Source: a virus (taxonomy: Duplodnaviria; Heunggongvirae; Uroviricota; Caudoviricetes). Taken from it: DNA of 64,000 nt. Made by a program: the position numbers and the translations under genes. The notes under the pieces are model-generated. The model did no database searches and was not told where the DNA came from. It saw nothing but the letters and a program-made list of their open reading frames with translations. Location: IMG/VR virus record IMGVR_UViG_3300043009_000101; one strand, written 5' to 3'. Shown in pieces: positions 4,561 to 25,940 of this stretch (the stretch's first letter is position 1; every line of letters begins with the position of its first letter).

Positions 4561-4571
4561 TAAAAATTAAA

Positions 4572-6126: not shown

Positions 6127-6417
6127 GAAATTCCTCTTTCTTAAAAAAACTTTCTGATTGTATAGAATGGCTCTGCTAGGCTCATAATGAAGTTTAGAGA
6201 GCGATTTGTAGGAAGGTAGGGTAAATACTAGGGCGGAATGAAATCCGGCTTATATTTACTTTATGAAGCTATAATCTTCCCTTGGTTGTATTATATGCTT
6301 GCATGTGCTAATTGTCAAGTCGTAAGATAGAAAAACTTGTAAAAAAATTTTGTTTGTATAAAATGTTATTAGGAAAGATAGCAAACTAGGGCAAGAAAGA
6401 GATAGAGAAAGAAAAAA

Positions 6418-6456
6418 GAAAAGGAACAGCGAAAGCTGTTCCTTTTCTTTCATTTT
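6418..6456. terminator. Bidirectional terminator
   Basis: aaaaaagaaaa-ggaacagc-gaaa-gctgttcc-ttttctttcatttt. Confidence 0.5.
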
Positions 6457-6651
6457 GTTCGTTGCTAGATGCTAAAGGAGAATTAAGTAATCTAGCGACA
6501 ACTCTATTGGGTTGCACAGATAGGATACCATAGGCTAGGATAAAATGCAAGCAAAAATTTACTGGGTGAAGAAAGAAAAAGGGACAAGATACCTATTGGT
6601 GCTAAAGAACAGGCATACCGCATATGTGCGGTATGCCTGTTTGTTCTCGGA

Positions 6652-6948
6652 CTAATTGCAAGCTGCGACAATGATAAATACTATGATGAACAAAAGAATT
6701 AAAGCAAGTATTTGCTCAACAAACCATTTGAGCGAATACCCAAATATTCCTCGTAAACCATAAGGCCGATAGCCATACCCGTACCCGTAATGCCTGTACC
6801 TTCTAGGATGATAATGTGGCTCTGGATGGTGGTAATGATGTGGTGGCTCATGAGGATACCCTCCACCAAATCCATGTGGCTCTGGTTGGTGATGATGGAA
6901 ATCTCCGCCTCTGCCTCCGCCTCCGTGCGGGCCGCCGTGTTCGTGCAT
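6652..6948 (-). CDS. His/Gly/Pro/Tyr-rich low-complexity protein with a C-terminal TM anchor
   Basis: N-terminus HGGPHGGGGRGGDFHHHQPEPH...YGYGYGYRPYG; C-terminus ILALILLFIIVFIIVAACN; AAAGGAG RBS. Confidence 0.6.
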   Translation of the reverse strand: MHEHGGPHGGGGRGGDFHHHQPEPHGFGGGYPHEPPHHYHHPEPHYHPRRYRHYGYGYGYRPYGLRGIFGYSLKWFVEQILALILLFIIVFIIVAACN

Positions 6949-7026
6949 TGTTCTCGCTCCTTTCTTTGCTTTGTAATTCTATATTATACTATTCTATATA
7001 AAAGGCAATAGCTATCGTATATTGTA

Positions 7027-7410
7027 TTAGGAAATAGAACGAATATACACAGCTACAACGATAACTATTATCAAAATGATGATAACCGCAAAAATATAAC
7101 TAATTACTTCGTGAATCGCATAAGCAATAAATTCATTCAATGTTCTAGGCACATAATAATCATCATACCCGTAGCCATATCTGCGATTATATCTCCCATA
7201 TCTTCCATATCGGTTGTTGTGATGATGGTGTGGCGGCTCTTGATGGTGATGGTGCTGTGGCTCAAACCCGCCGTGCATGCCTGACCCGCCTGGACCACCT
7301 TGCCCGCCAAATCCGCCTGGTCGCCCTTGCATATTCCCGCCTTGATTACCTCGATTTCCTTGGTTTCCACCAAAATTTCCTCCGCTGCCGGAACCTCCAT
7401 GTTGTGGCAT
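7027..7410 (-). CDS. Paralogue: Gly/His/Tyr-rich low-complexity protein with a C-terminal TM anchor
   Basis: GGSGSGGNFGGNQGNRGNQGG...HHHHQEPPHHHH...RYGRYGRYNRRYGYGYDDYY plus a C-terminal hydrophobic helix; AAAGGAG RBS. Confidence 0.6.
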   Translation of the reverse strand: MPQHGGSGSGGNFGGNQGNRGNQGGNMQGRPGGFGGQGGPGGSGMHGGFEPQHHHHQEPPHHHHNNRYGRYGRYNRRYGYGYDDYYVPRTLNEFIAYAIHEVISYIFAVIIILIIVIVVAVYIRSIS

Positions 7411-7439
7411 TTTTCTTTACTCCTTTCAATGCTTTTCGA

Positions 7440-9250
7440 TTATAATACTGTTTTGGTTTAAATTATGCCTGTGCTAAATTGTTTGGAAGAAAAAATTTGC
7501 CTGAGATTAGCTATGCAAAGCAAAACAAGTTTGCTTTGCATAGCTAGAACTTGCCTTAGACAAAAACTTGCCTGAGATTAAAGCTCGACTTAGACAGAAA
7601 CTACAACAAGACAAGGAAGCGAGGTCAGGCATACGAACGGAGTGAGTATGACTAGGTTTCGCTTCCTTGTCTTTTATAAGAATATGGCTGACAAATACCC
7701 TGCTTGTGTATGCAAGATAAAAGAAAATTATCTGACTTTTCTAAGAAAAATGTGGCTTAACACACCACTTGAAAGCAAAGCTTTCAGGTGGTGTACTAAG
7801 GGTGCTGTAAAGTAGCACCCTTAGTGCTGCCACAAAGAGATAAAGTTGTTTCCTACCTAAAAGCTCAAATAGTGTATTTTCCGATTGCCCCTTATGTATG
7901 AGTAATACCAAAGGTATTACTCATACATAAGGTAAAGGCACATGCCTTTACCTTATGGCTGGGCAGCTTCTGCAAGCTCGGAAAATTAGCTAAATGAAGT
8001 TTTACGAAATAAAGCCCGCCAGTATAGGTGCTAGACAAAAATCAAGACAATTACCAATAAGTGCCCAGAAAAGAATAGGTATCCTTTTGGATACCTATTC
8101 TGTACGGTAAATACCATATGTATTTACCGTACCATATGGGGCAATGCTCAGAAATCGCTCTGGTGTGAAATATGGAAAGAAGATGCTTTATATAAAGCAT
8201 ATTTTGATACAAAGAGATGGTGCTTCGTGGCTTAACAGACCACTTGAAAGCTATGCTTTCAGGTGGTCTACTAAGGGTACTGCCTAGCCAGTACCCTTAG
8301 TAGTGCCACGCTAGTGCCAGCTTTTGTCTAGTACCTAGAAACTGGCTTGTGCAAAATACACTAGCTGCCTAAGAAAATCGCAGCAAGATAAAGCGAGCAC
8401 AAGATGAAACTCGTACAGGCAAGAAGCTAGCACCAGAAAAATATGCAACTAGACACTACCACCAAGATACCCAGCTTATGCCTGCAAGATAGAACTATTC
8501 CTTACAAAATGCTACGGCAAGGCAAAAGCTGGTGAAAACAGAAACTAAGACAAGATAAGAATTACAACAAGATAAGGGAGCGAGGTCAGGCATACGAACA
8601 TAGTGAGTATGGCTAGGTTTCGCTTCCTTATCTTGTATCAGGCACAATACGGACAATACCCAGTGTTCATGCATGCAAGATAGAAGAAAAATTATCTGAC
8701 TTGTCTAAGAAAAAATTAGATAAAATTGTTTTCAATCTAAAAGCTCAAATAGGCCACTTTCCGAGCTTGCAGAAGCTCGGAAAGTGTGCTAAATGAAGTT
8801 TTAGAAAATAAAGCCCGTCAGTATATGTGGAAAGGAAAAATCAAGACAATTACCCATAAGTATGTCTAGAAATCGTTCTAGTCCAAAATATTGAAAGAAG
8901 ATGCTTTACATAAAGCAGATTTCTGCATAAAGAGATGGTGCTAGTGCCAGCCTTTGTCTAGTACAGAGAACTAGCTTGTGCAAAATACACTAGCTGCCTA
9001 TAATATTGCAGCAAGAAAAAACTGGCACAAAATAAAAACTTGTACCAATAAAGAGCTAGCACCAGAAGAGAGCAAGGCTAGACAAGAACTACGACAAGGC
9101 AAGGAAGCGAAGTCCGATACGAAGTAGCGAGGTCTCGCTTCCTTGATTGCAGAAGAAAGCAAGGCTAGACAAAAATACCCAAGAAGATAAACTAATATAC
9201 TATATTCATAGTTGCAAAATATGATTAGAAAGAGTAAAATATACATAGCA
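7440..9250. repeat. 1.8-kb gene-free region of mosaic, segmentally duplicated non-coding modules and hairpins
   Basis: Modules ('gaaaattatctgacttttctaagaaaaa', 'ctaaaagctcaaatag', 'ctaaatgaagttttacgaaataaagcccgccagtatag', 'gtgccagcttttgtctagtac', hairpin caaggaagcgagg...cgcttccttg) recur at about 7600-8340, 8560-9150 and again at 13930-14480. Confidence 0.6.
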
Positions 9251-9300
9251 AATATAAAACAGTCAGGCAAATGCCTGACTGCTAGAAAAGGAGAGATATA

Positions 9301-9843
9301 ATGGCTGAAACAAACATTATCAACACAAAAGGTTTCCGCATGTCCTTCGATGTGCAGATTTCCGACAAACTTATTCAGGCATACCGTGAGAAAGGCTATG
9401 AGCTAAGACTGACAAGAGTGGTCGAGGCGGAGAGTTGTGCGGAGAGTGGGACGGAAGATGAAAATCAACTCATCTTTATGCTCAGCCTGACTGGTGATGG
9501 GTTTACTGCTGGCGGCTGCCTGTACTTCTCTGTGGACTATGTGCATGGATTGCTGCTTTGTAAATACAGCCTGAGTGAGCTGGAACCGTTCCTGTACTGC
9601 CGACTGGCTGAACTTGATGATTGCGGTGGCTGTGTGGATTTAATGGCTGGAAAGGGCATTCTGGTTTTGACAGAGGACTTGGCGGAACACATGCTGGAAC
9701 TGGCAATCTGGGATAAAAAGCCTGTTTCAGAAGATGCAGATATGTATGCAGACTTGGCTGCGAAAGCTATGGAAGTGCAAATAGAGTTGGAGCAGAATGT
9801 ATACCCGGAATTAGTCGGAAGAGTGCATTGGACGGATGATTAG
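9301..9843 (+). CDS. Hypothetical protein (GC-rich, about 48% GC)
   Basis: AAGGAG RBS; 180 aa; GC clearly above surroundings. Confidence 0.55.
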   Translation: MAETNIINTKGFRMSFDVQISDKLIQAYREKGYELRLTRVVEAESCAESGTEDENQLIFMLSLTGDGFTAGGCLYFSVDYVHGLLLCKYSLSELEPFLYCRLAELDDCGGCVDLMAGKGILVLTEDLAEHMLELAIWDKKPVSEDADMYADLAAKAMEVQIELEQNVYPELVGRVHWTDD

Positions 9844-9845
9844 CT

Positions 9846-10169
9846 ATGGCGATAACAGATAAATTGGATTTTACGGATATTTGCGAGTATCTGGAACAAT
9901 ACTACTATCACTTGGATATAGAGCAGAAATTTGTTGACGGTGAACTTCGTGCGGGCATTAAACTGCAAGTAAATGTTCACATGAACGATGGCTCAGAGCA
10001 AGTCGTTTCTTTACTAGACAGTGCTGAAAAAGACTGCATGGTTTCTTTAAAAGGAAAAAGAATGGAAAGCTGGGCTGGTGCAAAACCTGAGGCAAAACAT
10101 TATGCCCGCCTGAAAAGAAATGTAAACTACCCCTCTGCTAAAGCAAGGGTGCTTTCGGAACTGTTCTAG
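9846..10169 (+). CDS. Hypothetical protein, translationally coupled to the upstream gene
   Basis: Start 3 nt after the upstream stop; 107 aa. Confidence 0.5.
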   Translation: MAITDKLDFTDICEYLEQYYYHLDIEQKFVDGELRAGIKLQVNVHMNDGSEQVVSLLDSAEKDCMVSLKGKRMESWAGAKPEAKHYARLKRNVNYPSAKARVLSELF

Positions 10170-10174
10170 CAACA

Positions 10175-10480
10175 GTTTTGTAAGTTCTTCTGTTTTAACA
10201 AGGGACTCTTTCAATTCACAAATTTACCAGACTCAGTTATTAGAAATAGTAACTACGATAGCTAGGATGTAGACACCCTTGGTTGACACATCAGACCATT
10301 GCTCTGTCGTATACATTTAAGTTGGTAGAGGTAAGAAGAAGCCTGTGATGTATACATGTAAGCCTATCTTATCATTGTCGAGATGTAGTCAGGATGTTTT
10401 AATGGTAACAGTTAAAGCGGAATGCAGGACAACATTCAATATGCTTCGGCATATTGAATGTTGAATTACATGATTTAGTT
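10175..10480 (+). ncRNA. Candidate omega-RNA (OMEGA guide RNA) of the IscB
   Basis: About 300-nt ORF-free, structure-rich region directly 5' of iscB. It includes a perfect 14-bp hairpin with cUUCGg loop (caacattcaatatg-cttcgg-catattgaatgttg, 10430-10463). Position matches the known IscB-omegaRNA arrangement. Confidence 0.5.
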
Positions 10481-10499
10481 CATGAGAAAGGAAGCCTAT

Positions 10500-11834
10500 A
10501 TGGTTTATGTTTTAAATAAAGATGGTAAACCTTTAATGCCTACAAAACGGCATGGCAAAGTTAGACATCTTTTAAACAGCAAAAAAGCAAAAGTTGTAAG
10601 AAGAGAACCTTTTACAATTCAGTTGCTTTATGAGTCTACAAATTATACCCAAGAACTCACATTGGGTATTGACACAGGCAGTGGTACATTAGGTTCTGCT
10701 GTTTCAGATACAAATGGTAATATTGTTTATGCTGCACAAGTGCAAGTTAGAAACGATATTACTAGAAAAATGACAAGAAGAAGAAAATATCGAAGAACGA
10801 GAAGAAATAGAAAAACAAGATACCGTAAACCAAGATTTCTAAATAGAAAGAATAGTATTAAAACAGATAGATTCAGTCCAACAATGGTTAGTAAAATTCA
10901 TAGCCATACAAAAGAGATTGAATTTGTAAAAACAATACTCCCTATCAAAAATCTTGTATTAGAAACAGGTCAATTTGATACAGCTTTAATGAAAAACCCT
11001 GATTTAGCAGACCCGTCTGTAAAACCTTGGGGTTATCAGCAAGGACCAAATTATGGATATCAAAATACAAGAGCTCGTATTTTAGATAGAGATGAGCATA
11101 CTTGTCAGCATTGTCTTGGTAAATCTAAGGATACAAGCCTTGAAGTACACCATATTATTTTCAGAGCAGAAGGTGGTAGTGATGATGATGAGAATCTGAT
11201 TACATTATGCCATACTTGTCATACCCAATTACACAATGGAGAAATTGAACTTAAGCTCAAAGGTACTAAAAAAGGTAATTTAAGCTATGCTACTCAAATG
11301 AATAGTATTAGAAAACAATTACTTAGACAATACCCGGAAGCTAAGGAAACATTTGGCTATATTACAAAAGCAAATCGTTTCAACTTGAACATTGGTAAAG
11401 ACCATTACTTAGATGCTTGTGTAATAGCAAGTGGTGGTAAAGCCATTACTTTTAAAGCAGAAACACTGTACCTTAAAAAAGATGTTGCTAAAGGAGATTA
11501 TCAAAGAACAAATGGCAAAAGAAGTGAAAAGAAACTACCAAAAGGAAAAGTTCTAGGTTTTATAAAATTTGATAAGGTCAAATATAGAAACACAATTTAC
11601 TTTATTAAAGGAGTTCGTACACAAGGTACTTGTGAGTTAATGGATATTACAGGAAAAAAGATGAATTTTAGCTATTTGCCTTATGGCCTGAAAACTCCAA
11701 AGTTGCTTAACTGTACTAGAATACAACCTAGAAAGACAAGATTATGCATAGAAAGGAGGTTAGCTGCGATTCCCCCGCATCTAAAGATACGGTGGTTTCC
11801 TTGCGGCGATTCTCATGAAAATAATGAAATATAA
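10500..11834 (+). CDS. iscB: IscB, IS200/IS605-family RNA-guided nuclease (Cas9 ancestor)
   Basis: PLMP N-terminus (KPLMPT); RuvC-I IDTGSG; Arg-rich bridge helix RRRKYRRTRRNRKTRYRKPR; RuvC-II LVLETGQFD; HNH CQHC...LEVHHI...ENLITLCHTCH; RuvC-III DHYLDACVIA. AAAGGAAG RBS before ATG at 10500. Confidence 0.9.
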   Translation: MVYVLNKDGKPLMPTKRHGKVRHLLNSKKAKVVRREPFTIQLLYESTNYTQELTLGIDTGSGTLGSAVSDTNGNIVYAAQVQVRNDITRKMTRRRKYRRTRRNRKTRYRKPRFLNRKNSIKTDRFSPTMVSKIHSHTKEIEFVKTILPIKNLVLETGQFDTALMKNPDLADPSVKPWGYQQGPNYGYQNTRARILDRDEHTCQHCLGKSKDTSLEVHHIIFRAEGGSDDDENLITLCHTCHTQLHNGEIELKLKGTKKGNLSYATQMNSIRKQLLRQYPEAKETFGYITKANRFNLNIGKDHYLDACVIASGGKAITFKAETLYLKKDVAKGDYQRTNGKRSEKKLPKGKVLGFIKFDKVKYRNTIYFIKGVRTQGTCELMDITGKKMNFSYLPYGLKTPKLLNCTRIQPRKTRLCIERRLAAIPPHLKIRWFPCGDSHENNEI

Positions 11835-11874
11835 CTAAGCAGCCGCTCCGAAGGAGCGGCTGCTTTTGGCTGGT

Positions 11875-12650
11875 GCTAGATATTGTCTTGTGCTAGATAT
11901 TGTCTTGTGCATAATAGATACTGGTGCAAGATATAAACTCGTGCAAAACTAAAAACTTCGCCTGTATATTGCTAGGGCTGAAAAATACCCGATGAATGTG
12001 GCGGGAATAGAATTATTACCTATACAAAACAATAAAATTGCTCTGTGAAGATGGAAAGTTGGGCGAAGCAAAGTATAGTGCCAGCTAAGAACTACGGCAA
12101 ACAAGCAGTAAGGCAAGGCAGAAACTAATGCAGGCGGAAATTATGGTAAGATAAAAACTAATACAAGCAAGGGTGCGAGGTAACGAAATAAATTTCGTGC
12201 CTACGAAATTTATTATCTAGTGAAAGCTCTGCTTTCACTAGATAGAAAAGTTACCGAGGTCAGGCGAACGGAGTGAAGCCTAGGTTTCGCACCCTTGTAT
12301 TGTATAAAAAATACTAGTCTGATTCGTTGCGAATAAACATCTTGCCTGATTCCTTGCTAGTAGAGGAAATACAGACATCACAGAGTATAGATAATACGGA
12401 CACTGGCACACAGTAAGTGCTTGCACAAAAAGTAAAGGGCACAAGATTGTTTCTTGCACAAAGTAATGGAAAGCACAAGAAAATATCTTGCACAATACAA
12501 AGGGCGAATACTAGTGGCAATACCCGAATTTAGTGCTGAATTATACACTAATTATATAAATACTGATTTACATTTGTATATTGTTGTGCTAAAATAATGG
12601 CAGAAAGATATCTAGTAAAGATAAGAAAGAAAAACAAGAAAGATAAGGAG
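11875..12650. repeat. Non-coding repeat-rich region
   Basis: Tandem 'tgctagatattgtcttg' x2, composite hairpin caagggtgcgagg...(about 110 nt)...cctaggtttcgcacccttg (12166-12297), and reiterated 'ttgcacaa' motifs. Confidence 0.5.
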
Positions 12651-12658
12651 TAAAAAGT

Positions 12659-13786
12659 ATGGCAACTACAAATTTAAATCTGGAACCGTTCAGCAGCTAT
12701 CTGGAATATTATGGCTTTTATTTGCATACCCGAGAAGTAAAGGTTGATGACACAACAAAAACATATATCCAGTTCGTTGAGAAAATGGTGGATGATTCAG
12801 GTAAAGAATGGTACAAAATCATAGCTGGCATGTTCTTTGTGCTTGTGCAGAAGCCTAATTATGCGGCTCTCTATGTAATGTCAGAGGGAAAAGCAGAGAA
12901 AATTGTTGAAAGAAATGTATCTCAGGTGCATATTTCACATATATTTGAGGTGTTCTTCGGAACTATAAGGTTAATCGTAGCACAATTACGAGAAAATGAT
13001 GCATCAGAAGAAAGACTGGCTTCCTATGAAAAACTATCCTCTGTATTATACCATTACCGCCGTCATTTTGAGGAGGAGAACTGGGTTGTTCCTGTTTGTA
13101 CGATGCCATTGCACTCTATGGACAAACCTATGCACCAATATGTAATGAAGTCTATTTTGCAAAAAGAAGAACAATCTAGGAAAGAACTTTGCTTTGATAG
13201 TTTCTTGGCCTGCTTTGAGGATACCCAGCTTGGTATGCATATTCAACAAGAACAAACAGATAATGGCTTTGTCGTTTCTATTCAACCGTATGTTGAAGAT
13301 AATGGCGAAAAGCATACGCTTGGAAATGCTGGCTTTGTTGTAATGAATGGTACAGAATTTACTTGCCACTTCAATCTGCAAGAGGAGTTCCTTGTAAAAT
13401 TTACTACAAAAGAATCGAAATATGGTGCTTTGGACTTAGAGTATTATTCCACTCCTTTTGAAAAAGATGCAGGAATGTATGCTGCGGCTAACATCACTGC
13501 TGTATGCCTGATTGTGTGTATGACTAAAAAACATCTGCGGGAGAAAGCAGAACAAAAAGAAATCTATGAAATTATGCTGGAAAAAGCAGAACAATTTCTA
13601 AGAGATACACCACTACATTACTGGAATAATCTGAATTCAATAGACTTTCCAACTGGCACAAAGAAAGAAACTAAGCCTGTGGCATGCAATACTCAAGAAA
13701 TGCAGACTGGTTGGAAACAGAAATGGAAGAATGGGCTAGGCGGAAAATATGGCAAGAAAAATACCCAACTCATTCTAAATGAATAA
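12659..13786 (+). CDS. Hypothetical protein (375 aa)
   Basis: AAGGAG RBS; long clean ORF. Confidence 0.6.
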   Translation: MATTNLNLEPFSSYLEYYGFYLHTREVKVDDTTKTYIQFVEKMVDDSGKEWYKIIAGMFFVLVQKPNYAALYVMSEGKAEKIVERNVSQVHISHIFEVFFGTIRLIVAQLRENDASEERLASYEKLSSVLYHYRRHFEEENWVVPVCTMPLHSMDKPMHQYVMKSILQKEEQSRKELCFDSFLACFEDTQLGMHIQQEQTDNGFVVSIQPYVEDNGEKHTLGNAGFVVMNGTEFTCHFNLQEEFLVKFTTKESKYGALDLEYYSTPFEKDAGMYAAANITAVCLIVCMTKKHLREKAEQKEIYEIMLEKAEQFLRDTPLHYWNNLNSIDFPTGTKKETKPVACNTQEMQTGWKQKWKNGLGGKYGKKNTQLILNE

Positions 13787-13799
13787 GAAAGGCTGACTG

Positions 13800-14600
13800 A
13801 TTTGTGGGCAAGCAAAAAGATTATATGTGCCTGAGTGAAAATGGTGCTAGATAATGGCTGGTGCTAGAAAGAAACTGGTGCAAGGAAGAAACTGGTACAG
13901 GCAGAAGCCAGTACAAGCAGAAATGCCCCGAAAAGAATAGGTATCCTTTTGGATTTGTCCCTCATACTAGGTAAATTGGGACAATTTACCTAGTATGAAA
14001 GCAAACCACGGGGTTTGCTTTCATCATAGGGGCAACCTATTCTGTACGGTAAATCCCTACTGGATTTACCGTACCATATGGGGCACTGGTACAAGCGGAA
14101 ACTGGTACAGGCAGAAACTGGTACAAGCAGAAACTGGTACAGGCAGAAACCAGTACAAGCAAAAACTTGTACAAGCAAGGAAGCGAAGTCCGTTGAGGGT
14201 GTATACCCGAAAACGAGGTCTCGCTTCCTTTTCTTGTTTAGAATAATATGAAAAATAAAAGAAAATTATACGACTTTTCTAAGAAAAAAGTAGATAAAGT
14301 TGTTCTTGTTCTAAAAGCTCAGAAAGTGAAGTTTCTGGACTTGCAGAAACTCGGAAAATGCGGTTTCTGAGCTTTTACGAAATAAAGCTCACCAGTATAT
14401 GTGCTGGGTGAAAAAATGAACAATTACCAATAACTATGCCTAGAAATCGCTCTAGTGTGAAATATTCGAAACAAGTGCTTTATATAAAGGTGATTTTGGC
14501 ACAAGATAGATACAGGCACAAGATAGATACAGGCACAAGATAGATACAGGCAAAGAAAGGCAGCCGTGCTATGCACGGCTGCCTTTTATTACAAATATAT
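13800..14600. repeat. Non-coding repeat region (copy of the 7.4-9.2 kb modules plus 16-bp and 18-bp tandem repeats)
   Basis: actggtacaRgcagaa x~5 (14086-14178); hairpin caaggaagcgaagtccg...cgaggtctcgcttcctt (14175-14232); gcacaagatagatacag x3 (14499-14552). Confidence 0.6.
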
Positions 14601-14615
14601 GGGCTAGAAAGAAAA

Positions 14616-15548
14616 CTAGTGCGAGTTTCGGTCTGCCTGATGCAAGAGCAACAAGTCATTGTAAATACCCTCGCCTAGCAATTGGGTGTACTTCGCCTGC
14701 ATTTTTTGTTGGTTGCGGGTGTTCCAATTGTATGGGTGCATATGATAGCAGACGAGTGTGCTGACGAGAAGCTTATCGGCGGGATAATCATAAAATAAAG
14801 AAAGATACCCACCAACATTCGCATGCTGATAGTAATGCGAGATGCCGTTGGGGTCTGTGGTTTTCGTTCTGGGTTTGCCTATATCATGCAAGCTGGCTGC
14901 TATGGCAAGGGGAGAAGATGCGGGTGAGGAGAGAGCTACGGTGTTGGCAACTTCGCTTAGATGCTCGCCTAGGGTTCTGGTGTGATACGGGTTGTTCTGG
15001 TTGTAGTCTTGATACAGCTGCATTGGTGCAAGATAATCGCCATAATAGGTTGGGTAAGTTGAGGAGGGATAGTAAAGCTGTATATTATTCCACCCCTCGC
15101 CATAGCTCGGTGTGGTCCAGAGCCTGAGCATACGGTTGATAACTTTCTTGCCGGCATGTCTGCTTGGGCGAGATTTGTCTTGCTCGATGCATATCTCTGG
15201 CGGAGTGGCTACAATTATACAAGTACACTGCGGGAAAGGTGTGCTGGCTTTAGTACATGCTTCCCGTATCAGAGCAAGAGTGGGAATACGGTGCTTCGCC
15301 TGTAAATTCGTTGCATCATATATGACAGATTGCCCGTGAGTTATCGCTTCGGCTAGTCGCTGGTGCAATACCCGATAGAGTTCCTCATTCTTGCACTGCT
15401 CGTTCACATTGTGGAATAGTTCCTTGCGAAGTTCATCTGTGCTGAGCAAAATGGTTGGGTTTGAGGTGGAGCTGGCTGCGAGCAGCTGCTGTGCTAAGGT
15501 GCTCTTGCCACTTCCAGGCAAACCTACCAGCATCGTGAATTCTAACAT
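14616..15548 (-). CDS. Polynucleotide 5'-kinase (T4 Pnk-like P-loop) fused to an HD-domain phosphohydrolase
   Basis: GLPGSGKST Walker A, STDELR and VIYDATNL (compare T4 Pnk GCPGSGKST / VIISDTNL); C-terminal HD signature (SLHDIGK ... HQADRNSH). GC about 52%. Confidence 0.75.
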   Translation of the reverse strand: MLEFTMLVGLPGSGKSTLAQQLLAASSTSNPTILLSTDELRKELFHNVNEQCKNEELYRVLHQRLAEAITHGQSVIYDATNLQAKHRIPTLALIREACTKASTPFPQCTCIIVATPPEICIEQDKSRPSRHAGKKVINRMLRLWTTPSYGEGWNNIQLYYPSSTYPTYYGDYLAPMQLYQDYNQNNPYHTRTLGEHLSEVANTVALSSPASSPLAIAASLHDIGKPRTKTTDPNGISHYYQHANVGGYLSLFYDYPADKLLVSTLVCYHMHPYNWNTRNQQKMQAKYTQLLGEGIYNDLLLLHQADRNSH

Positions 15549-16852
15549 GGGCGGGAAACTCCTTGCACGGGGGAGGGCTGGTCGGAGAGTGTATTAAGAA
15601 AAGATTCTATCTCGTGCAATTTAAGGTATCTGCCTGCTCTTGTCTTGATGTAGTTGTTCTCTTTGCCGAGATACTCGTTCCGTACATACCCTCGATATGC
15701 TTTCGGTACATGCTGGTCTATCCACTGCATGTCGCTCTTGCGGTCTGGGTTGGTGCGGGCGGAGGAGAGCTGCATAATGTAGGAATGAGTGATGCTCTGC
15801 TTGGCTTGGATGTACTGGAACACGAGGGTGGCTTTGGCGAGGGCTTCTGGCTGATAGGCTGCGGGCAGCTTTGCATATAAGTCATCCCATGTGCCTTGGT
15901 CTATCGCTTGGATTATCGTGTTGGCTGAGGTGAGGGTGGCGAGAATCTTGTGCATGCCTACATAATCGTTGTACTTTATCTTGACTTTGTATCCGTCTAT
16001 GTCTAACACGAAGCCTTCGGCTTCGCTGCATTGCTTGCTGTCTAGGGCTTGGAGAACTTCGTCTAAGGTTGTTGTGTAAAGAGTTGTGGTAAGCAAATTG
16101 TAAGAGGCGGCGATGGTTGTAAGGAGGGAATAAGACAATTCCTCGCCTGTGGAAATGCTTCGCATTCCCACAAGGTATAAGCCTTGCTGCTCTTCGGTGT
16201 ATTGCACAATATGCTTATCGTTAAGGCTGATATACTCGAATATGGCTGTGTAATCCGAATAGGCTTGGAGGAATTGGAGATAGTTGGGATGCGACTGTAG
16301 GTAATGCATACCGCCAGCTAGACGATAACTAGATGCGGGGTCGAGGGACTGACTGCCTGACATGACAAGGTGGTTGTGAAACCACCTTGCACTTTGCATG
16401 GAACCGTCCAGCTTGTTCGTGAATTCTACACGATTGGCTGACTGTATGAGCTGCCGAATTCGTGCTTCGCTGTTCGCTTCGCACTCATTCAGATTCTGGA
16501 ACTTGCGGAATGGTGTGAGTATCAGCTCGCCTGTGTGAATGTCTAACACTAGACTGCGGCACTCTTTGTAGAATTCGTTGTGAACTTGCCAGAAATCTGG
16601 ATAGGATAAGGACTGGCTAATCGGCTTGAAGAGCTGATGAAAATTGCCGTATCGTATCAGCAGCATGCCTTCATATTCGTGGAAGATAAGCGGTGCTAAG
16701 AGTTCCGTGTAAGCGGGGTTGTCGAGTTGGGTGACCCAGTATTCTAGGCACGATGAAGATTCTGGATACTCCCAGAGTGCTTCTTCGCCAAATCGCTCGA
16801 TGTAGGCTGACTTGATTTCTTTGAACTTTGCTTGTACTGGATTCCAATTCAT
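15542..16852 (-). CDS. ATP-dependent RNA ligase (Rnl-type nucleotidyltransferase)
   Basis: Motif I KLDGSM, motif IV EGFVL, motif V KVKIK; overlaps the kinase gene by 7 nt (operon); GC-rich. Confidence 0.7.
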   Translation of the reverse strand: MNWNPVQAKFKEIKSAYIERFGEEALWEYPESSSCLEYWVTQLDNPAYTELLAPLIFHEYEGMLLIRYGNFHQLFKPISQSLSYPDFWQVHNEFYKECRSLVLDIHTGELILTPFRKFQNLNECEANSEARIRQLIQSANRVEFTNKLDGSMQSARWFHNHLVMSGSQSLDPASSYRLAGGMHYLQSHPNYLQFLQAYSDYTAIFEYISLNDKHIVQYTEEQQGLYLVGMRSISTGEELSYSLLTTIAASYNLLTTTLYTTTLDEVLQALDSKQCSEAEGFVLDIDGYKVKIKYNDYVGMHKILATLTSANTIIQAIDQGTWDDLYAKLPAAYQPEALAKATLVFQYIQAKQSITHSYIMQLSSARTNPDRKSDMQWIDQHVPKAYRGYVRNEYLGKENNYIKTRAGRYLKLHEIESFLNTLSDQPSPVQGVSRPC

Positions 16853-17259
16853 AGGGTGCTTTCCTTTCTAGTGTTGTTATATGTATATTATACTAAAGTA
16901 TAATGGAATTAGCAATAAAACTAGTGTTAGGGGGTTTAGTATCCACACGAAGCAATTCTATTGCTTTGTGTGGATAAAGAGGTCTAACAAGAAGCTACAT
17001 CAAGATGAATACGGGTGCAGATGAAAGGCTTCATCGAAAATACGGCGAAGAAAGAAGCTTCATCGAAAGACTAGGCGAATATAAAAGCTAGGAGAAAATA
17101 AAAAGCTTCATCAATATATCTGTATGGCAAGGCAGAATAATCAGCTATGCATAGCTGGGAATTTGGGGGGGCGGATAGAAAACTGCATCGGAATAGAAAA
17201 GCTTCGGTTAGATGGGTATTGGGGCAAGAAAAACGGGTGCAGCAGATAGGCAAACTTTT

Positions 17260-17399
17260 GCTATGCCAAGGTTAGCTATGCCAAGGTTAGCTATGCCAAG
17301 GTTAGCTATGCCAAGGTTAGCTATGCCAAGGTTAGCTATGCCAAGGTTAGCTATGCCAAGGTTAGCTATGCCAAGGTTAGCTATGCCAAGGTTAGCTAA
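17260..17399. repeat. Perfect tandem repeat, 15 bp x about 9.3 (gctatgccaaggtta)
   Basis: Directly visible; the + and - ORFs spanning it are repeat artefacts. Confidence 0.95.
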
Positions 17400-17494: not shown

Positions 17495-17590
17495 CAAGAG
17501 CAAGAGCAAGAGCAAGAGCAAGAGCAAGAGCAAGAGCAAGAGCAAGAGCAAGAGCAAGAGCAAGAGCAAGAGCAAGAGCAAGAGCAAGAG
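17495..17590. repeat. Hexanucleotide microsatellite (CAAGAG)16, preceded by T9 G6
   Basis: Directly visible; T9 at 17464-17472, G6 at 17473-17478; a G7 tract at 17165-17171. Confidence 0.95.
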
Positions 17591-17926
17591 CGTATTAGAT
17601 GTGAATTCTCTGCAAGATATCTTCATAGAAAGTAAAAAAAAATCGGAAATTTACTTTTCCGATTTAGAAAGGTGGTGGCTCAACAAGGCAGAAAGTGAGC
17701 TTAACGGGTTTTAACTACCTAAAACTTAGCATAGTTATTCCTTCTTTTAGGCCTTCTGAACATCTTTTATACAGTTTTTCCTTTCAAAAATGTGCTGTTA
17801 GCAGAAAATCTATCAAAAGCAAATCTAATATTAGTATATCTAATATTATATAAGAAACCCCAAGATACACAATATGCTATTAAAACAAAAGGAATGTTCT
17901 AAAACATTCCTTTCATTCTAAGTAAA

Positions 17927-20900
17927 CTACTTTATTTGTTTTTTCCTCTTTCTCTTATCTAATACGAGAATACCCCCTGCACTAGTACCAAGTACTAAAG
18001 GTGTTAGTGATTTAAATACGCCTGTTCCCTTTTTACTTTGTGCAGCTAACACTGGTGCTAGTGGTATTTCCTGTATTGCGTCCATACAAATTACCTCTAC
18101 TTGCATATTATCTTGTATATTAGTAATCGTAATTTGATTGTCTATTGGTGTGATATCTTGCTCTACTCCATCATAATATACAGCTTGAAACAAATACCCA
18201 TTGTCTGGTTGAATAGTTAAGGTTATATTCTCCCCTGCTTGTATATTATTCAATTTAGTAGCTTCCACTGAGCAATTTTGTGTATAAAGGTCTATTGCTA
18301 AATATTTTGCAAGTTCTATTTGAATTGTATGTGAAGTTTCTAAATTTTTAAATGTATAGGAAACCTCATACCCATTTACAGGGTATTTTTTACCATCAAT
18401 AATGATATTTGATACATAATACCCACCAGCTTCGTAATACACCGTAAAATCATCACCTTTATGCAATTTATTGTTGGTAGGTGTAATTGTACCTGTATTA
18501 ACAGACGTTTCAACTGTAATATAAGGCAGATACTCAACTGTAATGGTATGATTTTCTGTAATATTATCAAAAGTATACATGGAATTATTTGCTAAACAGG
18601 AATCCACGGAATCTACCGTATCCGACATATCTTCCATACTCTCTGAAACCAAACTAGTTTCTAGTTGAACAGTAGTATCTTCAACTTCTGTGAATTCCGT
18701 AACAGAACTACTAGTGTTATCTTGTGCAAGTAATTCTGAATCTGGCACAATATCTATATAGGAGGAATCCACTAATACACTATTTAAATAGCTATTTTCA
18801 TTAGGACTATATTCTATTTTTACGCTATCGCCTTTGCGTATATTAGTTACAGTTTTAGTAATATTACCATTCAGTACTTTGGTAGTAATCGTTTTAAAAG
18901 GCTCATATACAACTTCCAATGTATGATTAGTTTCATTTATTGGCACTAATACTGTATTCTCCTCCGTATCTTTTAAGGTAGACGTAATATCTTCACCATC
19001 TAAAACAGCGGTTAACAAATATGCATTTGTATTTGGTGAAAATACTACCGTATACGTATCCTGACCTTTACATTCAGAAAAAGAACTTGTAATGATACCA
19101 TTGGTAACTTTTGTAGAAACAGAATAGTAAGGTAAACACGTAACAGTTATCGCTTGGTCTGCTTCTATATTTTCAAAAGTATATTCTTGTGAAAAATCTG
19201 TCACAGAAACATACTTATTGTTAACAAGAATAGTATCAATATAATACCCTTCATTTGCCTTATAAGTAATCTTTTGACTTGTTCCTTGTTTCTGTTGGTA
19301 TATTGCAGGCGTAATTTCACCATTTGAAATACTGGTAATAATAGATACATACTTTTTGTAGACAACTTTAATATCATGAGAATCCGTAATATTCTTAAAA
19401 GTATAAGATGTTTGATTTTCAGTATGATTAATCAGCTCTCCATCCACAAGTATTGTGTCTAAATAATAATTTTCATCAGGCTGAAACTCAACTACAAACT
19501 CAGAATTCAGAGGTAAATTGACAGCAGATGGTGTAATTGTACCATTAGTTACTGAAGTTGTGATACCTTGGTACGCAGCATATTCAACCTTAATAGTATG
19601 GTCTTTATCTATATCATTAAAAGTATATGAATTAGTATTCTCCGTTGTAATAGCTACCTCAGTATCGTCCACAAGCAGCCTTTTTAAATAATAATTTTCA
19701 TAACCTTTATACTGCACTGTAAAGTTAGTATTTTGCTGTATTGTAGAACTTGATTCTGTAATTTCACCATTTATTACTGTTGTTTTTATAAAATTATATT
19801 TTTTACAAACTAATTGAATTGTATGGTCCGTGTTAATATTACTGAACGTATATGTATCAGGATTCTTCACAATATCTATGGATTTACCGTCTATAAGCAC
19901 TTCATATAAATAATAGCCGTCCTCCGGTTTATAGGTTACTGTCCTATTTTCTCCCGCTTTAATTGTACTGCTCCCACCTGTAATTGTTCCATGTGTGGAA
20001 TTCGTTTTGATACTTAAATATTTCTTATAATTAACTTCTATGTTTTGAGTTTCAGTAATATTCTTAAAAGCATATTCTTGTTCATACTTTGTAATATCTA
20101 GCTCATTACCATTCAACACAATAGAACTTAAATAATAGCCATTTACTGGTGCATATTGCACACTTGCAGAATAAGGCTGTTGCTGATTATATATAGATTC
20201 TGTTATTGTTCCATTTACAGCAGAAGTCAATATAGAAACATATTGCTTATAAACAACAGTAATAGTGTGTGCTTCAGTTACGTTGTTAAAAGTATATTCA
20301 TTCTTATAGACAGTAACATCTTGTGCAATACCGTCTACATCAACAGACGCTAGGTAATAATTCTCATCTTTTGGTGCATACTCTATGGTAACAGAGGAAC
20401 CTTGTGTAATACTGCTTATAGTTGGCGTTATTGTACCATTTGTTACAGTTGTATGTATGCCAGAATAAGGCTTATATTCTACTTCAATACTTTGCTCCGC
20501 ATTGATATTGGTAAAAGTATAAGCGGATGCATAACTTTTTGTAGAAACTTCTGCACCATTTACCTTAACAGATGCTAAATAATACGAATCGTCCGTAGCA
20601 TTATATGTAATTGTTTTATCAGTATTCTTTTTTATCTTAGAATCTGTACTTGTAATAGTGCCATTCTTTACAGATGTTGTTATTGAAAGGTATTTTTCGC
20701 AAGTTATATTTATAGTATGATTTTCTGTAATAGATGTAAAAGTATAAGAACTTTCATAAATATCTAAATCCTGTTCCTCATTATCAACCTGTACAGATGC
20801 TACATAATAACCGTCATTAGCCTCATAAGTAACAGTAGGTGTATCACCTTTCTTTAACTTATTTGATGCACCTGTTATTTTACCATTCGTAATACTTGCG

Positions 20901-23900
20901 TCAATAGAATAGTACGGTACGTAAATCACATCTATTGTTTGGTCTGACGTAATGGATGCAAATTTATATGAGGATTCATAAGTTTCAGAAGAAACTGAGG
21001 AATCATTTACTTTTACAGATTCCAAATAATAACCATCTTTTGCAGAATAAGTTATTGTTTTTGTTAAAGGTTGTTTCTGATTTATAACAGAAGCTGTTAT
21101 TATTCCATTTTCAACAGATGTTTTTATAGAAACATACTTCTTATATACTACGGCAATAGTATGACTGCCTGTTACATTAGAAAATGTGTAGGAATCAGCA
21201 TAAGTTGTACTTGAAACGGAAGAACCGTCTACTATAACAGAATCTAAATAATAACTATCATCTGTTGGTTCATACTCTATCGTCACAGAACTACCAGAAG
21301 TAACTGAGTCTAAGGATGGCGTAATTGTACCCCCCTGTTACAGAAGTCTGTATGCCGGAATATGGTGCATAGGTAACTTCTATTGTCTGGTTAGACGTTA
21401 TATTTGAAAAAGTATAAGAACTAGCATACGTAGATGTAGATACCGCTGCACCATTTACTTGCACAGACAACAAATAATAAGAAGAATTTTTTGGTGAATA
21501 AGTTACAGTTTTAGAACTACCTGATTTAATTGCACTATCCGTATCTGTAATTATACCATTTGAAACATTAGTATTAACAGATAAATATTTTGTACATACC
21601 ACTTCTATAGTATGATTTGCAGACACAGAAGAAAATGTATATGCACTAGCATAAGTTGTTAATGATACAACAGAACCATCTACTTTAATGGATGAAATAT
21701 AATAACCTTCATCCGCAGAATAAGTTATCTTAGCAGTATCCCCTGCTTTTAATGTAGTTGATGAACCCGAAATCGTACCATGTGTAATGCTCGCTGCCAC
21801 AGTATAATAAGGAGCATACTCTACTTCTATTGACTGGTCTGATGTTACAGCAGAAAACTTATAAGTGGAAGCATAAGTTGTTGTAGACACCGCTGAACCA
21901 TTCACCTTAACTGATGCTAAATAATAAGCCGCAGTATTCTGTGGTGTATAAGTAATTGTTGTTGTTAATGGTTGCTTCTGCTTTGTCAGAGAAGAAGTAA
22001 TTGTTCCATTTGTTGCAGCCGTAGTTATAGAAACATACTTTTTATACACAACAGAAATAGTCTGATTTGAAGTAATATTAGAAAAAGTATAGGAATCAGC
22101 ATAACTCGTTGTAGAAACGGAAGAACCATTTACAGTTACGGAATCAAGATAATAACTACTGTCAGTTGGTGCATACGTTACAGTCTGTGAACCCCCAGAT
22201 TTAACAGTAGAAGAAGTAGGTGTAATTGTTCCGCCTGTAACAGTAGCTGCTACAGTTAAATATTTTGTAAATACAACAACAACTGTGTGGTTAGCTGTTA
22301 TATTTGAGAAAGTATATGAATCCGGGTAATTTGTTAGGTTAATTGTGGTTCCGTCTACTTTTACAGAGGACACGTAATAACCTGTAGATGGCTCATATGT
22401 AATTGTTTTTGATGCACCTGATTTTAGTTGTGTATCTGATACTGTTACTGTACCTGAACCTGTTTTAGATGTAGTTACAGAATAATATTTACTACATGTT
22501 ACCACAACAGTATGATTAGCAGCAACATTGGGAAAGGCAACAGAATTATTGATTATATTACCAATCTGTTCTACATCATCTACTTTTACAGAAGATACGT
22601 AATAACCTGAATTCGGTGTGAAAGTTACTGTTTGTGTGCTACCAGCTGCAACTGTACCTGTTGTAGGCGTAATTGTTCCGTTTGTAATAGATGTGGTTAA
22701 AGTATACTCCGTTGGTGCAGCTACAATATCGTCCTCAATAATTTCAACGGTAGCTTCATTAGTAGATACGCCTGTAACAGAACTAGTTACAGTTGGATTC
22801 CAATCAACAAATCCAGTGGCATACGTATATTTTCCTGATGGCTCACTAGGAGACGTCATATTAATCAAAGCATATACCGTACTATCAGCAGGTACTGTTG
22901 CTGCAGAACCACTTGCTGTATTCAACTTAATAGCGATACCTTTTATGTTTTCTTTAGATACAGAATTTGAATAGGTCAGCCAACTATTTGTTGTATCAGT
23001 TAATAAGTTTGGAGCAGAACTTGTAGTATAATAAATTTTTGGTGTATAACCACCACTTATTAATGCGGAGGTATCTATACCTGTACATACACCGTTCCAA
23101 TTGTTTTTAGCAGCAGTATTAAAGTATGCATAAAGAACAACATCTGTCATAGCAGTACCACTTGTTGTACCCATAACTTTATACGTATAATTAGAATCTT
23201 TGTTTGTTGTTGCTTTGGAAGCATAGCCTAATGTTTGAGTACCTGTTGCTAATAAGGTTGCACCTAATTGACTTGAATAAGAATAAGTTATTGTTTTAGT
23301 TGTTGTAAGACAGTAAGAATCTTTATCAAAAACACCATTTGAATCTAAATCTAATGGCTCTGTTGTAATAGGTGCTATTTTATACGTAGAATTATCATCA
23401 TTTATATATGGTTCTGTATATGTTCCTTTTACACTACTGTATGTAGTCAAGGTGGTTGTTAATTTATTACTTACAAGCATACTTTTTAAAACATCTTTTT
23501 CAACAGTAACAGGCACATATATATATCTGGATAATAAGTTGCTTTCCCAATAGATTTTGTATTTAAAGGATTATCTGTAAAATCCAAATAAGCAACTACA
23601 TAATTTTTACCGTCTTTAGTTTGCAACTCTTTTTTAAAATAATTAGGCAATTCAGCGTATGTCAAAGATGTACCATCTTTTAAAACATATCTGGTAGAAC
23701 TCGTAGTAGTAGGTTTCTTCATGTAAACATCAGAAATATTTACGGAATACCCGTCTGGTATTTCAAAACAAACATAAATTCTATCTATATAATCATTTTT
23801 AGCTTGCTTAAAATGTATAATTGGATAAGATATAAAATTAAAAGTACACTCACCCGTCTCACTATTGGAAGTAGCATTAGAAATAGAATTGTAAGATTGA

Positions 23901-25780
23901 ATAAATAATAGACTACTTAAAAACCTAACAGAACCTATACTCCTATAGATTGTACTACCATAAAGAGAAGTATCCCTTGCATTAACCAAACTTAACACAG
24001 AAGAATCCCCATCACTGGTTTTGTACATAGTAGTAGGCATAGCTGTAGTTGTATTTGCTTTATACGCACTCATACCCCAGCAGAAATAGACTTTGGAATC
24101 AGCAGCATAAGAATTTGCAAGTAAAATATCAAAACTCATAACCTGTCTGCCAGAACTTGTTATCGTGCTATTTAAACCATAATACTTATACTTAATAGCT
24201 ACAACTTTCTTACTACTCAAATCAATACAATAACCTTGTACTCTGCTTAGACCCTCCTGTGTTTGTGAAGTCAAATCAGTGTCTGGCAAAAACAGAGTGT
24301 ATTCAGATGCACCTGCATATCTCACATATAACTCCATATTATAGTCACTTGTAGTCTGCTTTGTATGAAAAACTGTTTCTCTAACGCCGTTTGTTGTAGG
24401 CATACTTTCGGAAATATATGCGGCTGTGATAGTGTAATCGCTATCTGTCAAAATATGCTGCGTGGTATCCGTAGCATAAACAGTGTCCATATAAGTTTCC
24501 ACATCAATACTCGTACCAGTATAACTAAATAAAAGAGATGTCTTATTAACTGCGGAAGCTTCATTTTGCTGCACAGCAACATTTGCTTCTACATTCACAG
24601 CATTTGCATCTTGTGCTAAAGTCAAAGTTTTATTTGCAGACAAAATATGGCTACTTGCTGTTACTGTAAAGGTATTACTGCATATATCCTCCATTGTATA
24701 TGTATCATATCCCCAATAAGCACCTCGAATTTTACCAGTAAACGTTATTGTACCACTTGTTGTGGTAGTGACTGCAAAAATACCTCTAAATAAATCACCA
24801 GAATTGTTACAACTATTAATTTTTATTGTAACAGAACCATTTGTCGGCGTATACTTTACTTTATTGTAATAATAAACAATATTACTATCACTGCTTGTCA
24901 AAGTAACTTCCGTAGCATAATTTTCATAGGCACTAGCATCTGTTATACCCCGAACCCAACCAGAAGAGCAACTACCGTTCACTATTACATTAGATTGTCT
25001 TGGCGTTGTCATATATGCATAATTTAAAACACCATGTGTACCGTTTAAATTTGTAGATATAGCATTCTCATGTTGTATAATCTGAAAAACACTTTTTCCT
25101 ATATAATCTCCTTCTGGTAAATAATCTGTGGTGGAAACACTTTCCGTAGTAATCTTTCCTGTGTAGCTGCGTTTAGAACGAGATACTACTAAATCCACAC
25201 TTTGAGTGACAATTACTTTATCATTTACAAGCATATCTACTTTATAAGTGTAAGTTTTGTCTTTTAAATACTGCACATAATTTTGCATCTGACTAGACGC
25301 AAAATTTAAAGATAAAGCAATTGTACCCTCTGCTGCACTGCCGGATGAATACGACTTTTTAGATGCCTCTAAACAATATCTGTCTGTTGTTCCAACTAAA
25401 CTTCCTTTAAAATTCGTATCTGTTAAAGGTGTAACATCAAAGAAAGCGGTATCGCCATAATCTGTAAGATTCATACCTGTGTATGTTTCCGATGCGGAAT
25501 ATACTCTAAAGGCTAATTTTCCAGCGGATAGGCTACTGCTTAAACTAGAATTGCTATAGTCTACCACTAGGGAGTATGCATCAGATGTATTTACAGATGT
25601 TGTTACGCTACTGGTATAAGTGGAGTTCTGATACCAGTTTACTTTCATCTGCCAACCATTGCTGCCACTCACATAGCTATTTGCTGTGCTTGCTTCTGCT
25701 GTTGCGGAACTGCCTGAATGCAACGAACCTAGCAAAAGTGGTATGCCTACAAGCAAAATCTTTTTTAATTGCTTTCGCAT
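17927..25780 (-). pseudogene. Giant (about 2620 aa) repeat-containing surface protein gene split into 3 ORFs by two frameshifts at simple-sequence tracts
   Basis: ORFs 23486..25780 (signal peptide plus N-terminal domain), 21291..23516 and 17927..21286 align collinearly with the intact paralogue 25941..31103. Breaks fall at (AT)5 23507-23516 and G6 21330-21335. Confidence 0.7.
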
Positions 25781-25940
25781 AACTATTCCTCCTATTCATA
25801 CAATATACAAAATTATTCTGTTTTAAGTATATTGTCATATCATTTCATTCATTTGGCAAATATTACGGAAAAAATATACTATAAAACATCAAACTAAAAC
25901 AAAAGGAATGCTATAAAGCATTCCTTTCTTCTTTAACAAA

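Follow-up and report, generated by a model that had tools for sequence, protein, structure and literature searches.

A putative RNA end-healing and sealing gene pair (a kinase-HD protein and an Rnl1-family ligase) in DNA of probable Bacillota type

We analysed a 64,000-nucleotide stretch of the IMG/VR record IMGVR_UViG_3300043009_000101 (hereafter the window, i.e. the stretch at its full length), in which a reading of the letters by a model (the original prediction) had described two overlapping minus-strand genes as a cassette that heals and seals RNA ends. Both open reading frames (ORFs) were found where they had been placed, sharing 7 nt (15542-15548), and all of the quoted motifs were located in their products: GLPGSGKST (amino acids, aa, 9-17) and VIYDATNL (aa 75-82) in the kinase-HD protein, and KLDGSM (aa 147-152), EGFVL (aa 279-283) and KVKIK (aa 289-293) in the ligase. 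The genes, their domains and the signals around them are as follows.

15542-16852, minus strand: gene for an Rnl1-family ATP-dependent RNA ligase (436 aa), assigned by Pfam, PDB, fold and invariant residues
14616-15548, minus strand: kinase-HD gene (310 aa), kinase N-terminal and HD C-terminal
15075-15548, minus strand: polynucleotide 5'-kinase domain, aa 1-~158 (G9-K15-S16, D38, R41, D78, R127, R130)
14619-15011, minus strand: HD phosphohydrolase domain, aa ~180-310 (H189, H196, H221-D222, K225, H242, H269, D306; LHDIGKP)
16887-16915, minus strand: sigma-70-like promoter candidate, TTGCTA-17 nt-TATAAT (10/12 consensus matches)
16859-16867, minus strand: Shine-Dalgarno-like AAAGGAAAG upstream of the ligase start
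15559-15564, minus strand: AAGGAG, putative ribosome-binding site of the kinase-HD gene, within the 3' end of the ligase gene
14556-14586, no strand assigned: hairpin with a perfect 14-bp stem between A- and T-runs, lying 30 nt past the stop of the kinase-HD gene
14605-14621, plus strand: border direct repeat, left copy (TAGAAAGAAAACTAGTG), overlapping the final codon (His) of the kinase-HD gene and its stop
16910-16926, plus strand: border direct repeat, right copy (TAGCAATAAAACTAGTG), 58-74 nt upstream of the ligase ATG

The product of the upstream gene matched the Pfam family RNA_lig_T4_1 (PF09511) with 69.2 bits (cut-off 28.3; 6e-19), and T4 Rnl1 entries were its sole sequence matches in the PDB (2C5U at 2.4e-8). 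The lysine of motif I (K147), the glutamate of motif III (E206), E279-G280 of motif IV and K291/K293 of motif V align with the catalytic residues of T4 Rnl1 (K99, E159, E227-G228 and K240/K242), and none of these four motifs varies among 29 homologues, nor do R99 and K117-F118, which precede motif I. The AlphaFold (AF2) model of the protein (pLDDT 88.5) found its best Foldseek matches in T4 Rnl1 (2C5U, 5TT6 and 9DO4; E 4.8e-15, ~390-406 aligned columns), followed by the ligase domains of fungal Trl1 and then by Rnl3, Rnl5 and Rnl2; it contains a helical C-terminal domain (aa ~295-423) that resembles the one of T4 Rnl1, and no OB domain. Pfam, PDB sequences and fold hence agree with the nucleotidyltransferase-type RNA ligase that had been proposed. 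A DNA ligase or mRNA-capping enzyme, either of which would have spoken against that proposal, was not what the searches returned: Foldseek placed DNA ligases at an E of at least 1e-3 and a TM of at most 0.29, Pfam gave no DNA-ligase or capping match, and capping families turned up in no search. Since the NCBIfam equivalog model of RnlA (TIGR02308) scored 64.2, far under its cut-off of 242, the protein is by homology a member of the Rnl1 family rather than an RnlA equivalog. Its predicted activity would be the ATP-dependent sealing of 5'-P/3'-OH RNA ends, such as those in a tRNA anticodon loop.

The N-terminal domain of the second protein matched AAA_33 with 81.5 bits (cut-off 27; 9.6e-23), while the model of bacterial Pnkp (TIGR04075) was matched over the kinase segment only, at 50.8 bits vs a cut-off of 750. 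Its closest solved relative is the Pnkp kinase of C. thermocellum (CthPnkp), both by sequence (4GP7, 2.5e-8) and by fold (4GP6, 5e-9), and the 16 top Foldseek matches consist of CthPnkp kinase, mammalian PNKP and fungal kinase structures (the last of which we take to be of Trl1 type); T4 Pnk is matched too. The residues G9-LPGSGKS-T17, D38, R41, D78, R127 and R130 align one by one with those of the CthPnkp kinase, for which Shuman-lab structures describe a general-base Asp, a substrate-binding Arg and lid arginines; D38 is the candidate general base. Across 33 homologues the P-loop, D38, R41, D78 and R127 are invariant and R130 is at least 90% conserved. Sequence and model alike place the domain as a polynucleotide 5'-hydroxyl kinase of the T4 Pnk/CthPnkp clade, and not as a small-molecule kinase.

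The C-terminal half of the same protein is an HD domain (Pfam HD 25.3 bits, cut-off 22, 2e-5; the HDIG model is matched as well) with a complete H..HD..H..H..D metal-ligand signature, in which H189, H196, H221-D222, K225, H242 and H269 are invariant and D306 is invariant or near-invariant, depending on the alignment. A profile of this domain run against the PDB reached 3WFP, labelled 'Poly A polymerase', in its HD domain (1.7e-9), with HDIGKP in common; 3WFP is the tRNA A-adding enzyme of Aquifex. Profile comparison places the domain nearest to its counterpart in CCA/A-adding enzymes. Phosphodiesterase as well as phosphatase activities are ascribed to the HD domain of the E. coli CCA enzyme in the title of Yakunin 2004 (cited in PMC2190708). 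The full-length AF2 model has a pLDDT of 95.4, no HAD (DxDxT) phosphatase domain was matched anywhere in the kinase-HD protein, and Pfam/NCBIfam searches found no metallophosphoesterase or fused ligase domain in either cassette protein. The fusion of a kinase to an HD domain in place of the HAD domain of T4 is therefore confirmed at the level of domain matches above cut-off, and the HD fold, whose absence would have undone the proposal, is represented by its full set of metal ligands.

A word-indexed search returned 437 homologues of the ligase and 1,771 of the kinase-HD protein, and essentially full-length matches to the latter (E<=1e-30) fall into 501 clusters at 50% identity among 1.84 billion representatives. 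We compared 95 loci around ligase homologues (14 species genomes, 78 IMG/VR contigs and 3 copies of the cassette itself) and found the kinase-HD gene just downstream of the ligase gene, on the same strand, in 87 of them; after dereplication at 70% ligase identity the pair is kept in 22 of 31 ligase lineages. This conserved synteny argues for a functional linkage of the two proteins. The loci with the pair belong mostly to large phages and to metagenome-assembled genomes (MAGs) of Firmicutes, and the exceptions are mainly lone ligases among ordinary cellular genes (fumarate hydratase and an MFS transporter being among their neighbours) on contigs binned to archaeal MAGs. Among 185,579 species genomes, 14 matched the two short and strict peptide patterns that were used. 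These homologues show nothing unusual about the cassette, which belongs to a module that is common in phages and in the mobile DNA of Firmicutes.

Two variants of the module were observed. In ~30 IMG/VR loci the cassette also includes a gene for a Pol-beta-type nucleotidyltransferase, which lies between ligase and kinase-HD genes (e.g. 6301-7104 in locus L022), and one representative of which gave a weak, sub-threshold match to the RlaP family, described as RNA-ligase-associated (PMC7824862, PMC12776372). In three others (L042, L045 and L051) a stand-alone kinase and a calcineurin-like phosphoesterase replace the fused HD protein (6348-7402 in L042), a swap that would be expected if the HD domain supplies the 3'-end-healing step. 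We further noted an ORF of ~188 aa with a metallophosphoesterase-like N-terminal motif (no Pfam match), which is a neighbour of the cassette in 51 of 94 loci.

These data bear on the possibility that the pair processes DNA ends, with the kinase-HD protein healing 5'-OH/3'-phosphate DNA breaks, in the manner of mammalian PNKP and of the role proposed for the HD-kinase PNKP of D. radiodurans, and the ligase sealing nicks in DNA or DNA:RNA hybrids. We hold this to be very unlikely, as the ligase falls in the Rnl1 clade and lacks an OB domain (DNA ligases at E>1e-3 vs 5e-15 for T4 Rnl1), the HD domain finds its nearest match in that of 3WFP (a tRNA A-adding enzyme), related loci carry the Pol-beta-type nucleotidyltransferase with its weak RlaP match, and an NAD-dependent DNA ligase is encoded separately in the window. 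What speaks for DNA as the substrate is that the kinase fold also matches the mammalian DNA-repair enzyme PNKP, that LigA, methylases and restriction enzymes are found among the neighbouring genes, and that the HD-kinase PNKP of D. radiodurans phosphorylates DNA oligonucleotides and has been studied as a DNA end-healing enzyme (PMC1997131).

The best PHROG match of the ligase (phrog_562) is annotated 'RNA ligase and tail fiber protein attachment catalyst' and most relatives are carried by viral contigs, so that a part in phage morphogenesis (the ligase being kept for tail-fibre attachment, as with T4 RnlA/gp63) or another role outside repair has to be weighed too. Profile scans, PHROG included, found no phage structural, terminase or tail genes in the window (the PHROG scans of 14 neighbouring ORFs gave nucleic-acid enzymes only), the nucleotidyltransferase catalytic residues are all invariant in the family, the lone homologues stand among cellular genes on contigs binned to archaeal MAGs, and the tight pairing with an end-healing enzyme fits RNA repair and not fibre attachment; we consequently regard a morphogenetic role as extremely improbable.

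Both proteins have counterparts in cultured Bacillus phages (KoopaTroopa, PP965177; Tsamsa-like phages; vB_BauM_KLEB27-3), where they occur in the order seen here, with the ligase upstream; going by these homologues and their annotations, the kinase-then-HD order and the ligase-kinase-HD operon are already present and annotated in such phages. The KoopaTroopa genes ('RNA ligase' and 'HD-domain containing protein') overlap as they do in the window, and their kinase-HD products align over the full length (aa 1-310 vs 1-324, E 1e-31). In KLEB27-3 the ligase shares 36% identity across 97% of the query and the second gene is annotated 'polynucleotide kinase', but three small genes separate the two. 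Identities between these pairs and the window proteins are 25-30% for kinase-HD and 21-36% for the ligase, and the pairs lie in bona fide phage genomes, whereas the window has no detected phage structural genes. We know of none of them that has been characterised biochemically.

A subfamily of Pnkp enzymes that join a kinase to an HD domain has been proposed since the early 2000s. Rhodothermus phage RM378 has such a fusion (with HD and not HAD), and its genome also encodes an Rnl1-type ligase of ~438 aa (Rm378p103). The order of the domains is the reverse of the one in the window, with HD N-terminal (aa ~44-156) and kinase C-terminal (aa ~188-335): the window HD domain (aa 199-306) aligns with RM378 aa 44-156, and the window kinase (aa 6-147) with RM378 aa 190-334. 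The two RM378 genes are ~6.5 kb apart on opposite strands, unlike the overlapping genes studied here, and identities to the window proteins are low (Pnk 23-25%; ligase ~21%, over part only). The protein in question, Rm378p110 (48060-49145 in locus L121), is annotated in RefSeq as 'probable poly A polymerase', and we take it, from its domain content, to be the characterised RM378 Pnk. A 3'-phosphatase activity has been shown in the HD domain of RM378 Pnk, as reported in PMC1997131 with reference to Blondal 2005, and the same 2007 paper counted RM378 Pnk as the only HD-type Pnkp for which phosphatase activity had been shown by then (PMC1997131).

T4 Pnkp and Rnl1 provide the three activities that we predict here (5'-kinase, 3'-end phosphoesterase and Rnl1-type ligase), with the kinase N-terminal and with the helical C-terminal domain in the ligase fold, as in the window proteins; the T4 phosphatase is of HAD (DxDxT) type, whereas the window protein has an HD domain. 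The two T4 genes are unlinked, in contrast to the adjacent and overlapping genes of the cassette. That the T4 pathway counters an anticodon nuclease is an established paradigm (Amitsur 1987, as cited in PMC11208441). The bacterial Pnkp/Hen1 and Pnkp1-Rnl-Hen1 systems (C. thermocellum, Capnocytophaga) follow the same logic of healing plus sealing and contain the closest solved kinase, but they use a calcineurin-type metallophosphoesterase, an Rnl4-type fused ligase or a separate Rnl, and the 2'-O-methyltransferase Hen1; neither a calcineurin-type metallophosphoesterase nor a fused ligase domain was seen in the cassette proteins, and a flanking 375-aa ORF has no Pfam match. Fungal and plant Trl1 (ligase-kinase-cyclic phosphodiesterase), which supplies the second-best fold matches of the ligase and whose kinase domains are matched as well, likewise unites three activities, but does so in one polypeptide, whose cyclic phosphodiesterase is of 2H type and produces a 2'-phosphate in need of Tpt1, whereas the window has separate genes and an HD domain; Tpt1 was not seen in the analysis, in which no search was aimed at it. 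According to a survey of jumbo phages, Rnl1 and Rnl2 travel with polynucleotide kinases and phosphatases that are usually of HAD type and in a few cases calcineurin-like or HD (PMC7824862).

As regards expression, the promoter candidate lies ~35 nt upstream of the ligase ATG and is a consensus match only, the count of sigma-70-like sites in the region being no higher than in shuffled sequences. AAGGAG-type sites occur at equal distance in most genes of the window. The location of one such site inside the ligase gene, along with the 7-nt overlap, suggests that translation of the kinase-HD gene is coupled to that of the ligase, and the hairpin downstream is probably an intrinsic terminator (possibly a bidirectional one). 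With a promoter-like site, ribosome-binding sites, a terminator hairpin and the overlap, the gene pair looks like an autonomous transcription unit. The AAGGAG sites, sigma-70-like promoters and putative intrinsic terminators point to a host or element of Bacillota type.

The cassette had been described as GC-rich, at ~52%, and as horizontally acquired. The contrast is real, though smaller than claimed: GC is 48.6% in the cassette, 37.7% in the window and 37-40% in the flanks, and a 200-nt profile limits the rise to the two coding regions, with 33-38% just outside. The cassette genes (48.4-48.8% GC) exceed 40 other long ORFs of the window (38.1 +/- 3.7%) by ~2.8 standard deviations, their GC at third codon positions (GC3) is 0.54 and 0.58 vs 0.33 +/- 0.08, and their coding-strand GC skew is -0.17, with mostly positive values in the other ORFs. 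These atypical values make a foreign origin of the cassette plausible. As two further ORFs (9301-9843 and 62453-63187) are likewise ~47% GC, the window is compositionally mosaic. No compositional donor was identified among the relatives compared: the closest (52-54% identity) reside on DNA of 29-35% GC, and the single relative locus at ~50% GC (L009, Lachnospiraceae) is only 43% identical.

A search for longer inverted or direct repeats bracketing the cassette found only the 10-17 nt border repeat (unit TAGMAAKAAAACTAGTG), whose two copies are identical at 15 of 17 positions and share an identical 10-nt core. This core, AAAACTAGTG, is present at two places in the 64 kb and nowhere else (0.33 expected), namely at 14612-14621 and 16917-16926 and in the same orientation, the left copy overlapping the kinase-HD stop and the right one lying 65 nt upstream of the ligase ATG. 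It could be an insertion scar and it could also have arisen by chance; no consistent bracketing repeat was found in the loci of relatives. The tandem-repeat tracts beside the cassette (14085-14177, 14498-14556, 17260-17398 and 17495-17591), which the original prediction had taken together with composition as signs of acquisition, were rejected as an insertion signature: perfect or near-perfect intergenic arrays of this kind are spread over the whole window and are uninformative on the cassette, for which the border repeat is the better clue. Composition hence sustains the acquisition claim and the tandem repeats do not. The arrays are located as follows.

7548-7602, 11873-11910, 13858-13896, 14085-14177 and 14498-14556: tandem arrays to the left of the cassette
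17024-17103, 17260-17398, 17495-17591, 51398-51460 and 53590-53720: tandem arrays to its right
61467-61523, 61948-61994, 62127-62194 and 63584-63907: tandem arrays near the right end of the window

Their units measure 6-31 nt, and GCA/AGATAG-like cores are common to many of them. Over 21.3 kb, a single gap of 6 nt is all that distinguishes a JGI copy of this region from the window, and in two short Logan contigs the sequence stops beside tandem arrays. A search of IMG/VR did not retrieve the window, and a genome scan with a single protein gave no match.

We consider it probable that the two genes form a self-contained operon for the repair of broken RNA, most likely tRNA, and that the 2.3-kb segment with the operon, foreign by its composition, is part of a mobile element or genome of Bacillota type. 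Cutting of the RNA by a ribotoxin or anticodon nuclease would leave one end with a 2',3'-cyclic phosphate and the other with a 5'-OH; the C-terminal HD domain, as a metal-dependent phosphoesterase, would open and remove the 2',3'-cyclic (or 3'/2') phosphate to yield a 2',3'-diol; the N-terminal P-loop kinase would phosphorylate the 5'-OH at the expense of an NTP; and the Rnl1-type ligase, adenylylated on K147, would move AMP to the 5'-phosphate and join this end to the 3'-OH. The scheme rests on precedents (the T4 paradigm, the 3'-phosphatase of RM378 Pnk and the HD domain of the E. coli CCA enzyme). From the latter two, and from the calcineurin-like replacement in L042, L045 and L051, we infer that the HD domain may remove 2',3'-cyclic or 3'-phosphate from RNA ends. 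The exact 3'-end chemistry, the substrates and a role in countering a ribotoxin of the host or of a competitor are predictions, while the domains, the folds, the conserved catalytic residues, the gene overlap and the conserved pairing are observed.

Several points weigh against this interpretation. To our knowledge, no member with the kinase-then-HD order, this protein included, has been assayed biochemically. The 64 kb yielded no tRNA gene, and a cognate ribotoxin or anticodon nuclease, which had been suggested as worth looking for, gave no PADLOC match among 20 window ORFs. A counter-defence role in a phage is unsupported by the context, since the window shows no phage structural genes. Furthermore, as the NCBIfam equivalogs for T4 RnlA and bacterial Pnkp score far under their cut-offs, we do not claim orthology to the characterised enzymes, and K119 of T4 Rnl1, which is essential in T4, aligns here with Ser/Gly.

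The same RNA repair could instead serve the host, as a housekeeping or stress response to spontaneous damage or to damage by the RNases of its own toxin-antitoxin systems, and not as counter-defence of a mobile element. The window has no phage hallmarks and no match to known defence proteins among the 20 ORFs submitted to PADLOC, the exact proteins are present on JGI and Logan contigs of up to 577 kb, and the lone ligases on contigs binned to archaeal MAGs sit beside ordinary metabolic genes, all of which would suit such a function. We nonetheless judge it quite unlikely, given that the cassette is compositionally foreign and bracketed by the border repeat, that its relatives are overwhelmingly on viral contigs or beside recombinases and methylases, and that the distribution is patchy rather than lineage-wide (the 14 species genomes mentioned above).

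A more speculative version of RNA repair on mobile DNA, which we see as unlikely, would make the cassette a counter-defence 'moron' recently acquired by a megaphage or by an extrachromosomal element of very large size, associated with Bacillota, its kinase-then-HD protein being a fusion independent of that in RM378 Pnk. It draws on the contigs of up to 577 kb, on a first 14.6 kb of which about half is non-coding, on a LigA that is <=40% identical to anything in IMG/VR, on the lack of a Pfam or PHROG match in most of the window ORFs tested, and on perfect intergenic tandem repeats of 15-31 nt that are reminiscent of archaeal Borgs. The tandem-repeat pattern of the window does resemble Borg repeats, while its host signals look bacterial. 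An archaeal Borg-like element, suggested by these repeats and by coding on a single strand, was set aside as improbable because of the AAGGAG(G) sites of most genes, the sigma-70-like promoter, the putative intrinsic terminators, the closest cassette relatives being in Firmicutes MAGs and phages, and the GC content (37.7% in the window vs 32-35% in Borgs; PMC11208441).

For RNA repair by a kinase-HD protein and an Rnl1 ligase, the cassette adds one example to a large branch (at least 501 clusters at 50% identity) in which a kinase is followed by an HD domain like that of CCA enzymes. It would be reasonable to choose one of its members for enzymology, because the sole HD-type Pnkp with phosphatase activity shown by 2007, RM378 Pnk, has the opposite domain order. 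Suitable names for annotation are 'RNA ligase (Rnl1 family)' and 'polynucleotide kinase/HD phosphatase'; as genome annotation the outcome is routine and opens no new question by itself.

Elsewhere in the window, an IscB/OMEGA-type element was observed at 10122-11834 (plus strand), consisting of a HEARO RNA (RF02033, 10122-10392; 82.3 bits vs a gathering score of 83, E 2e-16) and, directly after it, a 450-aa RRXRR+HNH ORF (10482-11834; Pfam RRXRR 2e-53) that, unlike most of its neighbours, has no Shine-Dalgarno site. Four consecutive giant ORFs (1119, 741, 764 and 1720 aa; GC3 ~0.2) occupy 17927-31103 (minus strand). The 1119-aa product is made up of repeats of ~80 aa, with a hydrophobic helix and KRKRKK at its end, the 741-aa product matched a divergent InlB B-repeat domain (Flg_new_2), PHROG gave no match for the 1119-aa and 1720-aa ones, and no viral relatives were found for the 764-aa one; the four are probably cell-surface, adhesin-like proteins.

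The interval 40135-53516 (minus strand) is dense in DNA-modification genes, with three C5 cytosine methylases (40135-41343, 48650-49639 and 52320-53516), a DpnII-family endonuclease (47698-48552) and an IceA-like protein (51585-52313), and it holds the divergent NAD-dependent DNA ligase (LigA, 41548-43527), which is <=40% identical to anything in IMG/VR. Coding density is low at the left end, where ORFs of >=150 aa cover ~48% of 1-14600 vs ~85% at 17-59 kb, and the 3 kb at 6126-9301 lack long ORFs as well as Rfam matches at gathering thresholds. Stop-codon recoding was considered for this low density (1-14.6 kb) and rejected, as it did not clearly restore it; TAA, TAG and TGA all serve as stops of long ORFs in the window.

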